The notes under the pieces were generated by a model that did not search any database, was not told where the DNA came from, and saw only the letters and a program-made list of their open reading frames with translations. The position numbers and the translations under genes were made by a program. DNA of 50,864 bases from a virus. Taxonomy: Duplodnaviria; Heunggongvirae; Uroviricota; Caudoviricetes. Location: IMG/VR virus record IMGVR_UViG_2695420685_000015; one strand, 5' to 3'. Numbering within the stretch: position 1 is the first letter of the stretch; every line of letters begins with the position of its first letter. This document shows positions 11,740-24,944 of this stretch, piece by piece.

Positions 11740-11896
11740 CCCGTCTCCTTTATTTTAATTTGCGCAATTGTCGCCTTGTAGTGTACTCCAGCTGCGACAT
11801 TTAATCATTTATGAGAAATGCTGTTATCACATGGCAGACATAAGGCCATTTTGTTACTATCAAGCCCCTTTTCACTACAAAGAAGTAATGCCTACT

Positions 11897-13930
11897 ATGA
11901 CCCAAGTCGCGAAGAAAATTCTGGTGACGTGCGCGCTGCCGTACGCTAACGGCTCAATCCACCTCGGCCATATGCTGGAGCACATCCAGGCTGATGTCTG
12001 GGTTCGTTACCAGCGAATGCGCGGCCACGAGGTTAATTTCATCTGTGCCGACGATGCCCACGGTACGCCGATCATGCTGAAAGCACAGCAACTTGGTATC
12101 ACACCGGAGCAGATGATTGGCGAAATGAGTCAGGAACACCAGACTGATTTCGCAGGCTTTAACATCAGCTATGACAACTATCACTCGACGCACAGCGAAG
12201 AGAACCGTCAGTTGTCTGAGCTTATCTATACTCGCCTGAAAGAGAACGGTTTTATTAAAAATCGCACTATCTCTCAGTTGTACGACCCGGAAAAAGGCAT
12301 GTTCCTGCCGGATCGTTTTGTGAAAGGCACCTGCCCGAAATGTAAAGCGCCAGATCAATACGGCGATAACTGTGAAGTTTGCGGCGCGACCTACAGCCCG
12401 ACTGAACTGATCGAGCCGAAATCGGTGGTTTCTGGTGCTACCCCGGTAATGCGTGATTCTGAACACTTCTTCTTTGATCTGCCCTCTTTCAGCGAAATGT
12501 TGCAGGCATGGACCCGCAGCGGTGCGTTGCAGGAGCAGGTGGCAAACAAAATGCAGGAGTGGTTTGAATCTGGTCTGCAACAGTGGGATATCTCCCGCGA
12601 CGCACCTTACTTCGGTTTTGAAATTCCGAACGCGCCGGGTAAATATTTCTACGTCTGGCTGGACGCACCGATTGGCTACATGGGTTCCTTCAAGAATCTG
12701 TGCGACAAGCGCGGCGACACTACCAGCTTCGATGAATACTGGAAGAAAGACTCCACCGCCGAGCTGTACCACTTCATCGGTAAAGATATCGTTTACTTCC
12801 ACAGCCTGTTCTGGCCTGCCATGCTGGAAGGCAGCAACTTCCGCAAGCCGACCAACCTGTTTGTTCACGGCTATGTGACGGTGAACGGCGCGAAGATGTC
12901 CAAGTCTCGCGGCACCTTTATTAAAGCCAGCACCTGGTTGAATCATTTTGACGCTGACAGCCTGCGTTACTACTACACTGCGAAACTCTCTTCGCGCATT
13001 GATGATATCGATCTCAACCTGGAGGATTTCGTTCAGCGTGTGAATGCCGATATCGTGAACAAAGTGGTTAACCTGGCGTCCCGTAACGCTGGCTTTATCA
13101 ATAAGCGTTTTGACGGTGTGCTGGCAAGCGAGCTGGCTGACCCGCAGTTGTACAAAACCTTCACTGATGCCGCTGAAGTGATTGGTGAAGCGTGGGAAAG
13201 CCGCGAATTTGGTAAAGCTATCCGTGAAATCATGGCACTGGCTGACCTGGCTAACCGCTATGTCGACGAGCAGGCTCCTTGGGTAGTCGCAAAACAGGAA
13301 GGTCGCGATGCTGACCTGCAGGCGATTTGCTCAATGGGCATCAACCTGTTCCGCGTGCTGATGACTTACCTGAAACCGGTACTGCCGAAACTGACAGAAC
13401 GTGCGGAAGCATTCCTGAATACGGAACTGACCTGGGATGGCATCCAGCAACCGCTGCTGGGCCATAAAGTGAATCCGTTCAAAGCACTGTATAACCGTAT
13501 CGACATGAAACAGGTGGAAGCATTGGTGGAAGCGTCTAAAGAAGAAGTGAAAGCTACTGCCGCGCCAGTTACTGGCCCGCTGGCAGACGACCCGATTCAG
13601 GAAACCATCACCTTTGACGACTTTGCCAAAGTTGACCTGCGCGTGGCACTGATCGAAAACGCAGAGTTTGTTGAAGGTTCTGACAAACTGCTGCGCCTGA
13701 CGCTGGATCTCGGCGGTGAAAAACGCAATGTCTTCTCAGGCATCCGTTCTGCTTATCCAGACCCACAGGCACTGATTGGTCGTCACACCATTATGGTGGC
13801 TAACCTGGCTCCGCGTAAGATGCGCTTCGGCATCTCCGAAGGTATGGTGATGGCTGCTGGCCCCGGCGGGAAAGATATCTTCCTGTTAAGCCCGGATGCT
13901 GGTGCTAAACCTGGCCACCAGGTTAAGTAA
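11897..13930 (+). CDS. metG: methionyl-tRNA synthetase
   Basis: 677 aa from ATG 11897 (track start 11768 is an upstream extension); [15 protein letters not shown] motif, KMSKS motif, CPKC...CEVC zinc knuckles, C-terminal tRNA-binding domain; from memory ~99% identical to E. coli MetG. Confidence 0.97.
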
Positions 13931-20304: not shown

Positions 20305-20335
20305 GAAAAAAGCGCCCATAGTGGGCGCTCGATTT
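20305..20335 (-). terminator. terminator with conserved AGCGCCCA-yrT-GGGCGCT hairpin
   Basis: aaaaaagcgcccatagtgggcgctcgatttta; A/T runs on both sides; same stem sequence recurs at 20806-20824. Confidence 0.6.
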
Positions 20336-20565
20336 TATTTGTGTAAACTGATTTTAAATCCCATTTCTACAAACGCTTTTAACATTAAAAATATATCAGC
20401 GTCGTTCACGTCTGCTTTTTTTCGCTCCTGGTCGCTCAATAAGTCAATTTTGCGCGTCGTTTCATCTATAAGCTCGACTGCGCGCCCAGCGTAACCAGCG
20501 ATCCCAGCGATGCGATTAACATAATATTCATTATGGACGTTAACGCCAGCGATAAGAACAAACAT
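20335..20565 (-). CDS. hypothetical protein
   Basis: ATG with AAGGAG RBS; 76 aa; AT-rich local composition. Confidence 0.55.
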   Translation of the reverse strand: MFVLIAGVNVHNEYYVNRIAGIAGYAGRAVELIDETTRKIDLLSDQERKKADVNDADIFLMLKAFVEMGFKISLHK

Positions 20566-20584: not shown

Positions 20585-20788
20585 TTAAATAGAATTTTGA
20601 AGTTTTCCGATTAATGCGCTTAAACGTAAGTATTCACGTTTGCGCTTGCAATCTCGCTTGCTGTTAAGCAAATCAGAAAACGTAAAATTTAATTGGTCGC
20701 GTTGCGCGATCAAATCATCGATTAATTCCAGTTTATAAGCGCGATACTTTGCGCGATATTCCGCGCGGATCTTGTCATAGCTGACCAT
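20585..20788 (-). CDS. hypothetical small basic protein
   Basis: Start moved to second ATG (20788) with AAAGGAG RBS because the track N-terminus runs through the conserved hairpin; 67 aa. Confidence 0.5.
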   Translation of the reverse strand: MVSYDKIRAEYRAKYRAYKLELIDDLIAQRDQLNFTFSDLLNSKRDCKRKREYLRLSALIGKLQNSI

Positions 20789-20805
20789 CTTTAAAGCTCC
20801 TTTAA

Positions 20806-20824
20806 AGCGCCCACTATGGGCGCT
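20806..20824 (-). repeat. second copy of conserved hairpin AGCGCCCAyTrTGGGCGCT
   Basis: agcgcccactatgggcgct between genes 20837-21487 and 20585-20788. Confidence 0.5.
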
Positions 20825-20836
20825 TGATTCCATTTA

Positions 20837-21487: not shown

Positions 21488-21734
21488 GATAATTTTTCCT
21501 TATGTAAATTTAAAATTTATTGTCGTTAGCGTCTTCGCTTTCGACGAGTTCAATTATCGATACGCGAAAAAAGATTGCAAGTGTTTTTTTTAAAATTTTT
21601 TGCAGGGATGAAAGTCCTAGAAATAAAAGCGAGATCGTCGAAGGTGTTCCCTAAATAAATAATCGATTGCGGCTTTAGACCTTATATATATTTAGGTTAT
21701 TTGATTTGTAGATATAAAGAAGTGATGTGAAAAA

Positions 21735-21758
21735 TAATAACCGGACTTAGCCGGTTAT
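21735..21758 (-). terminator. rho-independent terminator (minus strand)
   Basis: aataaccggacttagccggttatt with T-run on the minus strand. Confidence 0.6.
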
Positions 21759-21771
21759 TAACCTTATAGAT

Positions 21772-22080
21772 TTATTGAACAGACTCTACAGCCTTACGAT
21801 TGGTGTCAAATAGCGCATCAACGAACTGTGCCGATGACTCGCTAGATTCGCAATCCAACATTGCCCTTTCTTCATTTGCCACTTTCTTACACAGTTCCAC
21901 ATTCTCACCTATCGCTTTTCCTGCTTTTACGGCTGCCGAAAATTGATACATGCAAACTGATACATTCTGAGACGTTGAGCACACGTCATTCATCAGCGAC
22001 TGAATGACAGGCTTATAGTCCATTGCATTTGCCGCAACTGAGCAAAGTAAAAATAATGGTGGTAACAATATCGATTTCAT
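21772..22080 (-). CDS. predicted secreted/periplasmic protein
   Basis: N-terminal signal peptide MKSILLPPLFLLCSVAANA; 102 aa. Confidence 0.55.
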   Translation of the reverse strand: MKSILLPPLFLLCSVAANAMDYKPVIQSLMNDVCSTSQNVSVCMYQFSAAVKAGKAIGENVELCKKVANEERAMLDCESSESSAQFVDALFDTNRKAVESVQ

Positions 22081-22083
22081 AAC

Positions 22084-22608
22084 TCAAAAAGGCAAAATTC
22101 GTTCAACCCAATCGAACAAAACAACTATTTTTCTACCGTTCTCGACACGTAGTGTAACCTGACAAGCATCTGCGCCTGCTGACACCCCCTCAATTTCACG
22201 GCCATCCGCCATGTACACCCTTATAGATTTGTTTGCTTTGTAGGCTTGGTTGCAAATTGCAAAAAAATCGCGGCGTGATGGCCGATTATCGACATAATCA
22301 GGGTGAACTGTTAGTCGACCTTTGAAATCGTGAGCGATACTGTCAACCACACCTGATTCAATTGTACTAATGCGTTCAAGTGGGAGCCTTATACGATTTT
22401 CTTTGTCAAAAGGGGCTGGGCAAAGGTCAACTTTGTTACGAGATGGCATGAGGCCATAAACGTACATGCAAAACGCCTGGCCATCTTCGAGAGTGACCCT
22501 TACAGGAATTTGTTCTCTGCGCCAGAACATCAGTAGTTTTTCAACGTTAGTGTAATCTCGCGGCCAGAGTTCAGCTTGGATACCGTAGGTAATATCTTTG
22601 GTTGTCAT
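22084..22608 (-). CDS. hypothetical protein
   Basis: Start set at MTTKD ATG 5 nt after upstream stop (track start 22686 overlaps upstream gene); 174 aa. Confidence 0.5.
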   Translation of the reverse strand: MTTKDITYGIQAELWPRDYTNVEKLLMFWRREQIPVRVTLEDGQAFCMYVYGLMPSRNKVDLCPAPFDKENRIRLPLERISTIESGVVDSIAHDFKGRLTVHPDYVDNRPSRRDFFAICNQAYKANKSIRVYMADGREIEGVSAGADACQVTLRVENGRKIVVLFDWVERILPF

Positions 22609-22612
22609 GTCA

Positions 22613-23077
22613 TCACAGAGTTGTTGGCAGAATGTCGATGTCACCAGAATTGCTGGTGAACACCCTGAACGCTTTTGTGTCTCCATTCTTCAGAGTCGTT
22701 TCTCGCTCTTGACGAGCGGGGTTTAGAGCACATAAACCTGCACCTTCAAGAGATGCACCCACAATTAATTCTCCGGCATTTAAATGGAAAGTCGCTTTTT
22801 CGCCTGTAGCCAGTTTTGCGACAGTTTCGCCGTTGATGAAAATGGAAGCATCACATCCAGCTCCTACAAAACCTGTGTCTCTCATTACCACCAACGTAGC
22901 TGGCGCTGCGCTTTGATACTTGAACACTTTGGCCTGCGGTGCTGGTTTGGCGTCATGGATTGATATTGGGCGTGATTGGCACGCGGTAAGCATCAACACT
23001 GGTAACGTTAGTAGAGGGAGAAGCGAGTATTTCATGATAGTTTTAGAACAGAAAGTGAACAGTATGGGAGACTTCAT
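22613..23077 (-). CDS. predicted lipoprotein
   Basis: MKYSLLPLLTLPVLMLTAC signal peptide with LTAC lipobox; start may be ATG 23035 rather than 23077. Confidence 0.6.
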   Translation of the reverse strand: MKSPILFTFCSKTIMKYSLLPLLTLPVLMLTACQSRPISIHDAKPAPQAKVFKYQSAAPATLVVMRDTGFVGAGCDASIFINGETVAKLATGEKATFHLNAGELIVGASLEGAGLCALNPARQERETTLKNGDTKAFRVFTSNSGDIDILPTTL

Positions 23078-23103
23078 CTTTGTCTCCCTAATTGATAGCG
23101 TGA

Positions 23104-23382
23104 TTATTTTAATCTGCTTAATAGCGTTTCGAGATCTTCCTTTGTCATATTAGAGTTCTCATAGATACGCATGATTTTCTCACGAGTCTTAGCGGAAGCC
23201 CCGACAGAAGATATAACCTTGTCAAAGTCGGCCATTGTCAATTGTTCCAGAATGGTATTTATGACTTCAGCCTTAGACATTTTGATATTTTTTTCTTTTA
23301 GTTTCACTTGAAACTTTCCAAGTTTGTCATTGGCCTTATCAGACAATGCTACCTGACAATAAGTTGTTTTCTTTTCGCTCAT
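23104..23382 (-). CDS. small hypothetical protein, possibly ribbon-helix-helix DNA-binding
   Basis: 92 aa, immediately downstream of helicase; N-terminal beta-strand plus helix pattern is only suggestive. Confidence 0.4.
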   Translation of the reverse strand: MSEKKTTYCQVALSDKANDKLGKFQVKLKEKNIKMSKAEVINTILEQLTMADFDKVISSVGASAKTREKIMRIYENSNMTKEDLETLLSRLK

Positions 23383-23384
23383 AA

Positions 23385-24944
23385 CTAATCTCGTTTCAGA
23401 ACTCCAAAATCGAATGCTCCATCAATAGGCAATACACCTTCTGCAAAGCCAGGTGTGGTGTCGATGATGTGTTTTCGCTCATAAGAGTGAGACAACAGGT
23501 ATTTGTTGCTAATGTCAATGAAATCAGTGATAAAACACACGTTTGCCTGATTTTTTTTGGCTCGTAAGCCACGACCGACACGCTGCCTCATTTCAACTTC
23601 TGCTTTCCCACCACCAGCAAGAATGACCGCACCAACGCTTGGCACATCAACACCGACATCCAGAATAGTCGAGCCTATTAAAACATCTATTTCTCCAGAC
23701 GCTAAACTGTTCAGCTTTGCTTGCCTTGTCGCCTGGTTAGATTCCCCATAGATGAAGTCAACTCTAAGGCCGGACTCTTTCATCATTTCCATCAGGATTT
23801 GCCCGTGGCGTTTAAGACGAACCAGAGTCATACAATTGAGAGAATGTTGCTTATAGAGCAATGCTTCGCGAACAATGGCCTCGTTACGTCCCAAATTATA
23901 CACGATCCCCAACTGATAAGCCTTTTGGTAGGCGGTGCTCATACCAACTCTAAAATTGAGGTGTTTGTTGGCAAGTTCGGCCTTGATTCTGGCCTCGTCT
24001 GGCTTGTAGGCAACTTTATGATAAAGGAAGTACGGCTTTGCCAGAATGCCTCGATCAATCAGGTACTTTTCTGTGACTTTAATTTCAATTCGCCCGGCCA
24101 CCGCCATCAGGCGCATGTTGGCTTCCGTCGAATCCTTCATGAACGGCGTGGCTGTAAGCGCCAGACGATAGTCTGCGTTCACACATAATCTGGCGATGTC
24201 ATAGAAATTTGAGCCTGAAGACTCATGCGCCTCTTCCAGAATAAGAAGAGAGACACTTGAAAGGAAGCGTTTCACCAACTCCCGACGTTTGAGGTGGTAG
24301 CTTTTCTTATCTGGTGTTGCATCGCGTGGTGGTTCTTCGAGGAAACTTGCAAGAGTTTGAACTGTAGCGACGTTGATATGTCGTGATACCTGGAACTCAC
24401 CCGAGCCAATGACTCCAACCTTTTGGTCTTTTAACCACGGTTCGCCATTTTCGGCGCGGTAGTCGATGGATCTCTGGAAGTTTTCGGCCATTTGAAACAT
24501 CAGAACAGAGCGGGTTGTTAAAAATAATGTCATTCGACCGATACGTGCAGCTGCTTTGCAGGCAACGTTAGATTTCCCGCCACCAGTAGCGATCTGCGCA
24601 ATCATCATTCCCTCTCGAACCAGTGTTTCCACAGTCTGATCCTGATACGCATAATCAGGATTGTATGGGAATGGGTTAACCGCCGGATTTGGTTTACCAA
24701 GCGCCGGGGCTTTGTCTTTGCGGATATGAACACATTTGATGCCCGCCTTGTTCAAGTTCGCCGCTACAGGCTTGGCAAAGCCAGCAGGGAACGAGTTTTT
24801 ACTCCAGTTGAACATCGTGCTTGTGCCCTTCCAGTCGCCAGTCTCGACTTCGTAGCTCAACATTTGCTGCACCAGTTGCTTTACCTTGTCATCTGCGCCA
24901 GAAATAAGCGCATTTACTGCGTTAGATACAATCCGAACAGTCAT
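23385..24944 (-). CDS. superfamily-2 DEAD/DEAH-type helicase
   Basis: Walker A ATGGGKS, motif II LILEEAHES, motif III LTATP, motif VI QRVGRGLR; AAGGAAAGAGG RBS. Confidence 0.85.
   Translation of the reverse strand: MTVRIVSNAVNALISGADDKVKQLVQQMLSYEVETGDWKGTSTMFNWSKNSFPAGFAKPVAANLNKAGIKCVHIRKDKAPALGKPNPAVNPFPYNPDYAYQDQTVETLVREGMMIAQIATGGGKSNVACKAAARIGRMTLFLTTRSVLMFQMAENFQRSIDYRAENGEPWLKDQKVGVIGSGEFQVSRHINVATVQTLASFLEEPPRDATPDKKSYHLKRRELVKRFLSSVSLLILEEAHESSGSNFYDIARLCVNADYRLALTATPFMKDSTEANMRLMAVAGRIEIKVTEKYLIDRGILAKPYFLYHKVAYKPDEARIKAELANKHLNFRVGMSTAYQKAYQLGIVYNLGRNEAIVREALLYKQHSLNCMTLVRLKRHGQILMEMMKESGLRVDFIYGESNQATRQAKLNSLASGEIDVLIGSTILDVGVDVPSVGAVILAGGGKAEVEMRQRVGRGLRAKKNQANVCFITDFIDISNKYLLSHSYERKHIIDTTPGFAEGVLPIDGAFDFGVLKRD

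Follow-up and report, generated by a model that had tools for sequence, protein, structure and literature searches.

Among the described phage proteins, the closest to those discussed here are two lipoproteins. Cor, encoded by N15, phi80, T1, HK022 and mEp167, is a small lipoprotein of the outer membrane whose inactivation of FhuA excludes FhuA-dependent phages; Llp, the lytic conversion lipoprotein of T5, binds FhuA from the periplasmic side and blocks the binding of pb5, to whose gene llp is linked. In T4, the membrane protein Imm and the small periplasmic protein Sp (Spackle) together block the entry of superinfecting T-even DNA. A further system concerns the flagellum: FljA is encoded in Salmonella (hin-fljB-fljA), in plasmid pBSSB1 (FljA-z66) and in the E. 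coli flk/fll/flm islets. The FljA proteins of Salmonella and of pBSSB1 block the expression of fliC post-transcriptionally; a pBSSB derivative harboring fljA and devoid of a flagellin gene renders E. coli non-motile, and a fljB-deleted S. Typhi with an intact fljA makes no flagellin (PMC2652032). In this work we analyzed a viral DNA stretch of 50,864 nucleotides (Caudoviricetes; IMG/VR record IMGVR_UViG_2695420685_000015; hereinafter, the whole stretch is referred to as the window) in which three tightly packed genes, lying at positions 21772-23077 of the minus strand, encode a lipoprotein, a FljA-family protein and a small periplasmic protein.

The helicase gene cluster of an SSU5-type phage-plasmid ends distally with this cassette. 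We suggest, with a probability of about 0.4, that it modifies the surface of its carrier, the lipoprotein being most likely a superinfection-exclusion or lytic-conversion factor unrelated in mechanism to Cor and Llp, and the FljA-like protein repressing flagellin or some other mRNA. The region 21500-23400 is matched by Escherichia phage CMS-2020a at 99.5% identity, in part by Salmonella phage SSU5 (78%), and by 454 PLSDB plasmids from Escherichia, Enterobacter, Yersinia, Salmonella and Citrobacter, nearly all of them non-mobilizable and about 100-115 kb long. Since the rest of the window encodes, besides these close matches, a terminase, a portal protein, a tape-measure protein and lambda-like gpL/gpK/gpI/gpJ, the window can be assigned to an SSU5-type phage-plasmid.

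An initial annotation of this DNA had described the two exported proteins as encoded back to back in an otherwise cytoplasmic leftward operon. The limits that it gave coincide exactly with the ends of open reading frames (ORFs), 23077 being the first ATG of an ORF of 154 amino acids (aa; 22613-23077) and 21772 the stop of the 102-aa one, and an N-terminal hydrophobic segment is indeed confined, among the products of the cluster, to these two. The two genes, however, are not adjacent, as a 525-bp FljA-family gene, overlooked at that stage and included in a longer ORF of 200 aa (22084-22686), sits between them; its 174-aa product is cytoplasmic (all genes, including the helicase and 92-aa ORFs of the same strand, are listed in Table 1). 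The stop of the lipoprotein gene is followed after 4 nt by the start of the FljA-like gene, a spacing also found in SSU5 and in pMT1 and hence in three lineages including the window, and the stop of the FljA-like gene is followed after 3 nt by the ATG of the 102-aa gene. The same 102-, 174-, 140- and 92-aa genes were called by the Prokaryotic Genome Annotation Pipeline (PGAP) in the GenBank record of a 99.8%-identical plasmid. All three cassette genes are under purifying selection, with a ratio of nonsynonymous to synonymous substitution rates (dN/dS) of 0.05-0.10 where dS is unsaturated; where it is saturated, dN is 0.11-0.35.

The export of both proteins was assessed by pattern, hydrophobicity and conservation. 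The LTAC lipobox previously reported for the first protein is well founded, its N-terminus, MKYSLLPLLTLPVLMLTAC, fitting a PROSITE PS51257-type pattern, that is, [LIVMFWSTAG]2-[LIVMFYSTAGCQ]-[AGS]-C after six uncharged residues, with the Cys at positions 15-35 and a K or R within the first seven residues. In the stretch LTLPVLMLTAC the Cys is residue 19 (codon at 22979-22981; residue 33 if counted from an upstream ATG), a Lys is present at position 2, and the hydrophobic maximum of the protein lies at its N-terminus. A better Shine-Dalgarno-like motif (AGGGAG) precedes the upstream ATG (23077), which gives 154 aa; the start used in relatives and by PGAP corresponds to 23035 and gives 140 aa, and both starts lead to the same mature form of 122 aa. 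Residue +2 of the latter is a Gln and, on the basis of the established +2 rule for lipoprotein sorting, the protein is therefore expected to be sorted to the outer membrane.

A word-indexed search retrieved only close relatives of the lipoprotein, which are 55-100% identical to it where they align and come almost exclusively from contigs of about 100 kb. With an exhaustive profile search the family grew to 1174 representative clusters (E up to 1e-3), of which 445 reach E up to 1e-10; with few exceptions the clusters represent lipoproteins of about 140 aa. In an alignment of 58 sequences, the lipobox Cys (C19, 58/58), R52, D53 and C61 are invariant and C102 is nearly so, a pattern of Cys residues consistent with an exported protein carrying one putative disulfide, predicted between C61 and C102. 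The protein strongly matches phrog_890 ("lipoprotein"; 9e-52, residues 9-140 against positions 6-136 of the 136 of the profile), and DUF2846 (PF11008) only below the gathering cut-off (18.1 bits against 34.3, E 0.0028); the latter weak match recurs in 11 of the 58 relatives (best E 2e-5). Neither family has a known function, and the papers on DUF2846 and on mEp390 contain nothing on the function of the lipoprotein family. With the 58-sequence alignment, AlphaFold predicted an all-beta sandwich (predicted local distance difference test score, pLDDT, 91.6; predicted template modeling score, pTM, 0.84), an earlier model from a nine-sequence alignment being poor (pLDDT 52). Foldseek searches of PDB and BFVD with the model found nothing specific, only generic beta-sandwiches. 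A possible identity as an o-spanin was judged improbable, since the protein has 140 aa and a folded structure, no lysis genes were found among the immediate neighbors of its gene and the homologs lie in tail modules.

The genomic contexts of the family were examined in 80 IMG/VR viral contigs with relatives of the lipoprotein, in which reference genes were located by tblastn. The SSU5 arrangement, i.e., helicase, 92-aa gene, lipoprotein, FljA-like gene, (102-aa gene) and 216-aa gene, is found in 25 of them. In 47 of the other 55 loci the gene lies among the lambda-type tail-tip genes gpL/gpK/gpI of temperate siphophages, usually as the last gene before gpI (just after gpI in four loci and before gpL in one), and in lambdoid phages it usually follows gpK (Prok-JAB plus NLPC_P60), either directly or beyond other cargo. 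Eight loci lie elsewhere, and in all five of those inspected the gene is just upstream of the tape-measure gene. The Cor-like position that had been attributed to the lipoprotein gene applies to these homologs and not to the window, where it is far from the tail genes. The gpK-gpI slot is also used in the cultured phage mEp390, whose depositors noted the similarity to the Y. pestis pMT1 lipoprotein, in temperate phages of P. aeruginosa, in a 54-kb Klebsiella phage-plasmid and in metagenomic prophages; further relatives occur in phages of Vibrio anguillarum and in other Pseudomonas phages. In at least three loci (in L095 by tblastn), the lipoprotein gene adjoins a gene for an Imm_superinfect (PF14373) membrane protein; Pfam scores of such neighbors were 56-65 bits against a cut-off of 27.9. 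Overall, the family is distributed as a mobile phage accessory gene directed at the envelope would be.

The gpK-gpI slot is a cargo hot-spot; it was also seen to contain a gene for a secreted TonB_C protein (PF03544, 5.6e-15; locus L067, 2404-2829, plus strand), genes for lipoproteins of 159-214 aa and an insertion sequence element (L051-L101). In three different genomic contexts (L009, 695-1213; L094 and L103, 3923-4333; L007, 3555-4004; all on the plus strand), genes of the lipoprotein family directly adjoin a gene for a small membrane protein whose zinc ribbon (CxxC...CxxC) is C-terminal or lies in the center, which hints at a two-gene module made of a zinc-ribbon membrane protein and a lipoprotein.

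The comparison of SSU5-type elements revealed a very different degree of conservation of the genes of the cluster. In PLSDB, tblastn recovered the helicase in 1002 records (788 at 80% identity or more), the FljA-like gene in 831, the lipoprotein in 421 and the 102-aa protein in 259. The variable slot of the lipoprotein lies between the 92-aa gene and the FljA-like gene. The lipoprotein occurs there in the window, in SSU5, in pMT1, in pHCM2-type and in Enterobacter elements, with about 76-83% identity outside the group to which the window belongs. Klebsiella elements harbor, on the opposite strand, a 145-aa lipoprotein that is a divergent member of the same family (hhalign probability 99.7%, E 1.5e-26, 26% identity to the family consensus); their FljA-like protein is 79% identical to the window copy, and the 99-aa gene that follows it encodes a divergent homolog of the 102-aa protein (about 26% to the family consensus, with the four Cys aligned). 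The 102-aa protein is absent in SSU5 and pMT1. In one element (L048), the helicase, FljA-like and 102-aa genes are 98-100% identical to those of the window, and the lipoprotein is represented by a 61%-identical allele accompanied by an extra 180-aa gene. In Cyrano/pLF82, the slot is occupied by genes for a 199-aa protein and an unrelated 266-aa lipoprotein. Both exported proteins are therefore evolving or being exchanged much faster than their conserved neighbors, a behavior typical of genes involved in surface interactions or conflicts. As for the Cyrano lipoprotein itself (locus L022, 2659-3459, plus strand), it has no Pfam match, and retention in the inner membrane is predicted for it because of the Asp at +2.

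Also for the 102-aa protein the signal peptide reported earlier is supported by our analysis: its N-terminus, MKSILLPPLFLLCSVAANA, followed by MDYK, contains one positive charge, a 13-residue hydrophobic core and an A-x-A site (A-N-A), so that residues 1-19 (22024-22080) form the signal peptide and the mature form has 83 aa. The hydrophobic segment is kept in all seven homologs. Members of phrog_9536 begin at an internal Met of this protein; such a shorter start is unlikely, and translation must start at M1, because two homologs lack the internal Met. Four Cys residues are conserved (C34, C43, C64 and C77), with one lost in a homolog bearing a deletion, and to judge from this pattern they probably form two disulfides. 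One source labels a homolog "periplasmic protein", and in every case inspected the gene lies directly after the FljA-like gene.

The FljA-like protein matches Pfam PF03614 (Flag1_repress) over the entire model (1-170 of 170) with E 2.5e-84 and 281.7 bits against a cut-off of 24, as well as phrog_1444 (1.9e-100); both this full-length match and the length of the protein liken it to the FljA proteins of Salmonella, of pBSSB1 and of the E. coli islets. With the FljA sequence of S. Typhimurium it shares about 34% identity along its whole length, a value to be taken as a lead only. A weak Pfam match to Hfq (Sm-like), below the cut-off (E 0.001), was seen at residues 146-188 of the 200-aa ORF; it would fit an RNA-binding fold of the C-terminal part. 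Unlike the canonical fljA, the gene is an "orphan": a tblastn search of the 50.9-kb window with a FliC N-terminus (E up to 10) found no flagellin gene, no invertase adjoins it, and rather than lying downstream of an alternative flagellin gene of the fljB or flkA type it has the lipoprotein and 102-aa genes as neighbors. A further difference is that it behaves as a core gene of SSU5-type phage-plasmids, found also in non-flagellate hosts. Its PLSDB records include S. Typhi pHCM2-type plasmids and Y. pestis pMT1, and its counts per genus match those of the helicase almost exactly (Klebsiella 341 against 346, Escherichia 229 against 228, Enterobacter 92 against 92 and Yersinia 62 against 62), and therefore it can be considered effectively a core gene. 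Klebsiella and Y. pestis are non-flagellate, and the copies on their plasmids have a dN/dS of about 0.08-0.10; the fact that the gene is kept in these plasmids suggests that it has an RNA target other than, or additional to, the flagellin mRNA. A scan of the genome collection with the FljA alignment yielded only five close relatives and did not reach the chromosomal fljA loci, and the literature that we searched contains no paper linking FljA to SSU5 or to phage-plasmids. A degraded copy was also observed: the E. coli chromosome CP125919 carries at 385158-397682 (L006) an integrated and heavily degraded SSU5-like segment, in which the helicase and 216-aa genes have been broken into fragments and the product of the FljA-like gene is only 52% identical, with a density of changes that looks unusual for simple decay.

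Table 1. Features of the cassette and of the adjoining part of the leftward gene cluster (positions refer to the window).
Feature	Position	Strand	Basis or remark
DEAD/DEAH-box (UvsW-like) helicase gene, first of the leftward cluster	23385..24944	-	Pfam ResIII, DEAD, Helicase_C
92-aa gene of the same leftward cluster	23104..23382	-	Cyrano homolog 86% identical
Possible internal promoter, weak sigma-70-like match TCGAAA-18-AATAAT (9/12)	23103..23132	-	Match to consensus only; just upstream of the lipoprotein gene
Lipoprotein gene, 140 aa	22613..23035	-	Lipobox; phrog_890; PGAP start 23035
FljA-family gene ("repressor of phase-1 flagellin"), 174 aa	22084..22608	-	PF03614; phrog_1444
Gene for small exported protein, 102 aa	21772..22080	-	Signal peptide; phrog_9536
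Terminator-like hairpin, 10-bp stem followed by a T-run	21735..21760	-	Follows the 102-aa gene directly; transcription unit probably ends here

Nothing relevant emerged when the cassette region was scanned for Rfam families and for repeats. The cassette proteins had no match in an NCBIfam search, and sequence profile searches of the three proteins against PDB returned only signal-peptide matches.

Expression data are available for Cyrano in E. coli LF82, in whose lysogens the helicase gene, the homolog of the 92-aa gene and the FljA-like gene are transcribed and the structural genes are silent. The homolog of the 92-aa gene, CYRAN_117, is transcribed 12-fold above the prophage background in lysogeny broth (LB) (PMC9928086, Table 1), the helicase reaches about 46 normalized counts (PMC9928086), and the FljA-like gene CYRAN_114, at about 18 in LB, increases from log2 4.2 to 7-8 in Dulbecco's modified Eagle medium (DMEM) and in macrophages (PMC9928086, S1 Table). 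The transcript of the 266-aa lipoprotein likewise increases, being at log2 about 4.8 in LB and at about 9 both in DMEM and in macrophages, and those of terminase, portal and capsid are mostly at log2 3-5, with the capsid at about 7.5 at 6 h in macrophages (PMC9928086). The gene cluster is thus active during lysogeny in a close relative, and by homology the same may apply to the window. CYRAN_117 was also among the most highly transcribed Cyrano genes in lysogens (PMC9928086).

How does the cassette compare with the systems described above? The lipoprotein shares with Cor the classical lipobox and the occurrence in temperate siphophages with lambda-like tails, and cor lies within the tail cluster of N15 as the homologs of the window gene do in other phages. 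It differs in that the window gene adjoins the helicase and FljA-like genes, and in size (140 aa against the 78 aa of Cor), in agreement with the earlier remark that it is larger than the classical ones. As for Llp, the likeness consists in the location expected for the lipoprotein at the inner leaflet of the outer membrane and in the linkage of its family to host-recognition genes in other phages, the differences being the size, the predicted fold and the lack, in the window, of a tie to the phage's own receptor-binding domain. With respect to T4, the adjacency of the family to Imm_superinfect genes in several prophages recalls Imm, and the 102-aa protein, small and periplasmic, is of a size similar to Spackle; however, no Imm-like gene is present in the window and neither exported protein is similar in sequence to Sp, so that the resemblance is one of logic only.

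The cassette might represent a lysogenic or lytic conversion module changing the cell surface. The lipoprotein would most likely bind a component of the envelope and in this way prevent the adsorption or the DNA entry of incoming phages, as a functional, non-homologous analog of Cor and Llp, and the 102-aa periplasmic protein may act together with it in the same compartment. The FljA-like protein would, by homology, bind the leader of the flagellin mRNA and block its translation; with no flagellin gene to accompany it, this action would strip the cell of its filament.

Several points weigh against this interpretation. No experiment or homology ties the lipoprotein family to exclusion, a role that we would call plausible. 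The alignment of the family profile with N15 Cor (gp24) by hhalign (probability 36%) was confined to 18 columns covering the signal peptide and the lipobox, that with T5 Llp (PDB 8A60, 8a60_B) covered only residues 1-19 (E 0.46), and no Cor-type PHROG was matched. On the whole, the export of both proteins described in the initial annotation stands, and so does its proviso that the lipoprotein might be a factor different from Cor and Llp, with which it shares no homology beyond the signal peptide; what does not stand is the adjacency of the two genes. The three cassette proteins had no match in PADLOC-DB 2.0 at E up to 0.01. The window lipoprotein gene is about 21 kb from gpK/gpI/gpJ, outside the tail module, and the idea that it tracks the receptor-binding end of gpJ had to be rejected: the window gpJ ends in a Phage_Tail_Tip domain, and its C-terminal 200 aa recur with 99.5% identity in Cyrano, which lacks a window-type lipoprotein, and with 89.5% in SSU5, which has it. 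The lipoprotein is thus not an obligatory partner of its own receptor-binding protein, which weakens a strict Llp-like model of masking one's own receptor and is still compatible with the exclusion of other phages. Moreover, the receptor of SSU5 is reportedly the core of the lipopolysaccharide, which a lipoprotein could not easily mask. A 61%-identical copy of the lipoprotein stands alone beside a degraded integrase in a chromosomal islet, and because of this solitary copy the family may have a general envelope role. The expression data derive from a relative with a different cargo in the lipoprotein slot. Lastly, flagellin may not be the target of the FljA-like protein here, given that its gene is present in 341 plasmids of Klebsiella and 62 of Y. 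pestis.

Different explanations for the cassette have to be considered alongside that of surface modification and exclusion. The exported proteins might be host-fitness morons, conferring serum/complement resistance, stress tolerance or adhesion in the manner of Bor, Lom and TraT. This would agree with the occurrence of the cassette in pathogens, on SSU5-type plasmids (S. Typhi pHCM2-type, Y. pestis pMT1, clinical Enterobacter and E. coli), with the increased expression of its Cyrano neighbors in DMEM and macrophages, with the solitary chromosomal copy of the lipoprotein and with the generic nature of its beta-sandwich fold. We consider it unlikely, since the consistent placement of the family inside tail modules, its repeated pairing with Imm_superinfect-type proteins and the allelic replacement of the lipoprotein fit a conflict between phages better than an adaptation to the host; in addition, Pfam revealed no similarity to Bor, Iss or TraT. 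According to a further possibility, the lipoprotein, and perhaps the 102-aa protein, would be a periplasmic inhibitor of, or confer immunity to, a phage envelope enzyme such as the NlpC/P60 peptidase of gpK, by analogy with T4 Spackle, which inhibits the gp5 tail lysozyme. The lipoprotein gene does usually follow gpK in lambdoid phages and the gpK of the window has the same domains (Prok-JAB and NLPC_P60), while the 102-aa protein would be Spackle-like in size and compartment only; on the other hand, no similarity in sequence or structure to known peptidase or lysozyme inhibitors was found, the distance of about 21 kb separates the gene from gpK in the window and, to our knowledge, a periplasmic action of gpK-type peptidases during infection is not established, all of which makes this possibility distinctly unlikely.

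It is also conceivable that the three genes form one flagellum-directed unit, in which the FljA-like protein stops flagellin synthesis and the exported proteins target periplasmic or outer-membrane components of the flagellar apparatus or deal with its absence. The short spacers (3-4 nt), that between the lipoprotein and FljA-like genes being kept in three lineages, the recognizability of all three genes even in Klebsiella elements and the linkage, again, of a 60%-identical lipoprotein to a FljA-like gene on short metagenomic contigs speak in its favor; however, the linked cases all belong to one lineage of elements and hence do not represent independent evidence. Cyrano lacks the lipoprotein or has another in its place, Klebsiella elements have it inverted, the periplasmic protein is missing in SSU5 and pMT1, most members of the lipoprotein family reside in tail modules devoid of a FljA gene, and in Klebsiella and Y. 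pestis there is no flagellum to be targeted; such a unit thus appears very unlikely. Finally, the ORFs or the signal peptides might be chance features, with the products being cytoplasmic or not made at all. The start of the phrog_9536 members at the internal Met and the two candidate start codons of the lipoprotein might be invoked in this sense, but the latter lead to the same mature protein, the lipobox Cys is invariant (58/58), the hydrophobic N-terminus of the 102-aa protein is conserved also in the two homologs without an internal Met, Cys pairs are conserved in both exported proteins and dN/dS is below 0.1, so that we regard this explanation as extremely improbable.

The preferred interpretation can be extended to a three-layer module for "surface cloaking", a scenario which in its entirety we deem speculative and decidedly unlikely. 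The orphan FljA would be an ancestral RNA-binding regulator of phage-plasmids silencing the flagellin of the host or, in non-flagellate hosts, other mRNAs, and under host-like conditions the loss of flagellin would remove both a phage receptor and a ligand of innate immunity. The fast-evolving lipoprotein and periplasmic protein would block the entry of rival phages in a way unlike that of Cor and Llp, possibly by inhibiting the tail-tip enzymes of the incoming particles, and the chromosomal fljA of Salmonella would be a domesticated phage-plasmid gene.

The genes themselves are not new, since the labels "lipoprotein" and "repressor of phase-1 flagellin" have been present in SSU5 and pHCM2-type records for years. 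What appears undescribed in the literature searched is the family-wide placement of the lipoprotein in tail modules, its pairing with Imm-type proteins and its allelic turnover beside a core orphan FljA gene. SSU5-type phage-plasmids are common in Enterobacteriaceae, and this exact cassette is present on plasmids of 90 out of 5,426 complete E. coli genomes. If the lipoprotein does act in exclusion, it would represent a new and widespread class of exclusion factors, encoded by many temperate siphophages of Escherichia, Klebsiella, Pseudomonas and Vibrio within their tail modules, with a bearing on the prediction of phage host range and on phage therapy. If the FljA-like protein does silence flagellin, carriage of the element would change motility and the expression of the H antigen, as well as the susceptibility to flagellotropic phages and the detection by innate immunity. 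In either case, an unrecognized RNA target is indicated by the retention of the FljA-like gene in hosts without flagella.

Some observations concern other parts of the window. A GC-rich palindromic hairpin (AAAGCGCCCA..TGGGCGCT) is present in two copies (20309-20340 and 20804-20835), both terminator-like on either strand and flanking the small genes 20335-20565 and 20585-20833. The product of the latter (minus strand), with a length of 82 aa here and of 67 aa in relatives, has a match in phrog_6145, labeled "MIT family metal ion transporter"; because it has no hydrophobic segment (maximum KD15 0.49), the label is doubtful and probably a propagated misannotation. Lastly, a 720-aa ORF lies at 11768-13930 on the plus strand, and a near-identical plasmid is annotated as having metG, for methionine-tRNA ligase, at a corresponding distance to the left of the cassette; with this ORF as the candidate gene, the phage-plasmid may carry an aminoacyl-tRNA synthetase of its own.

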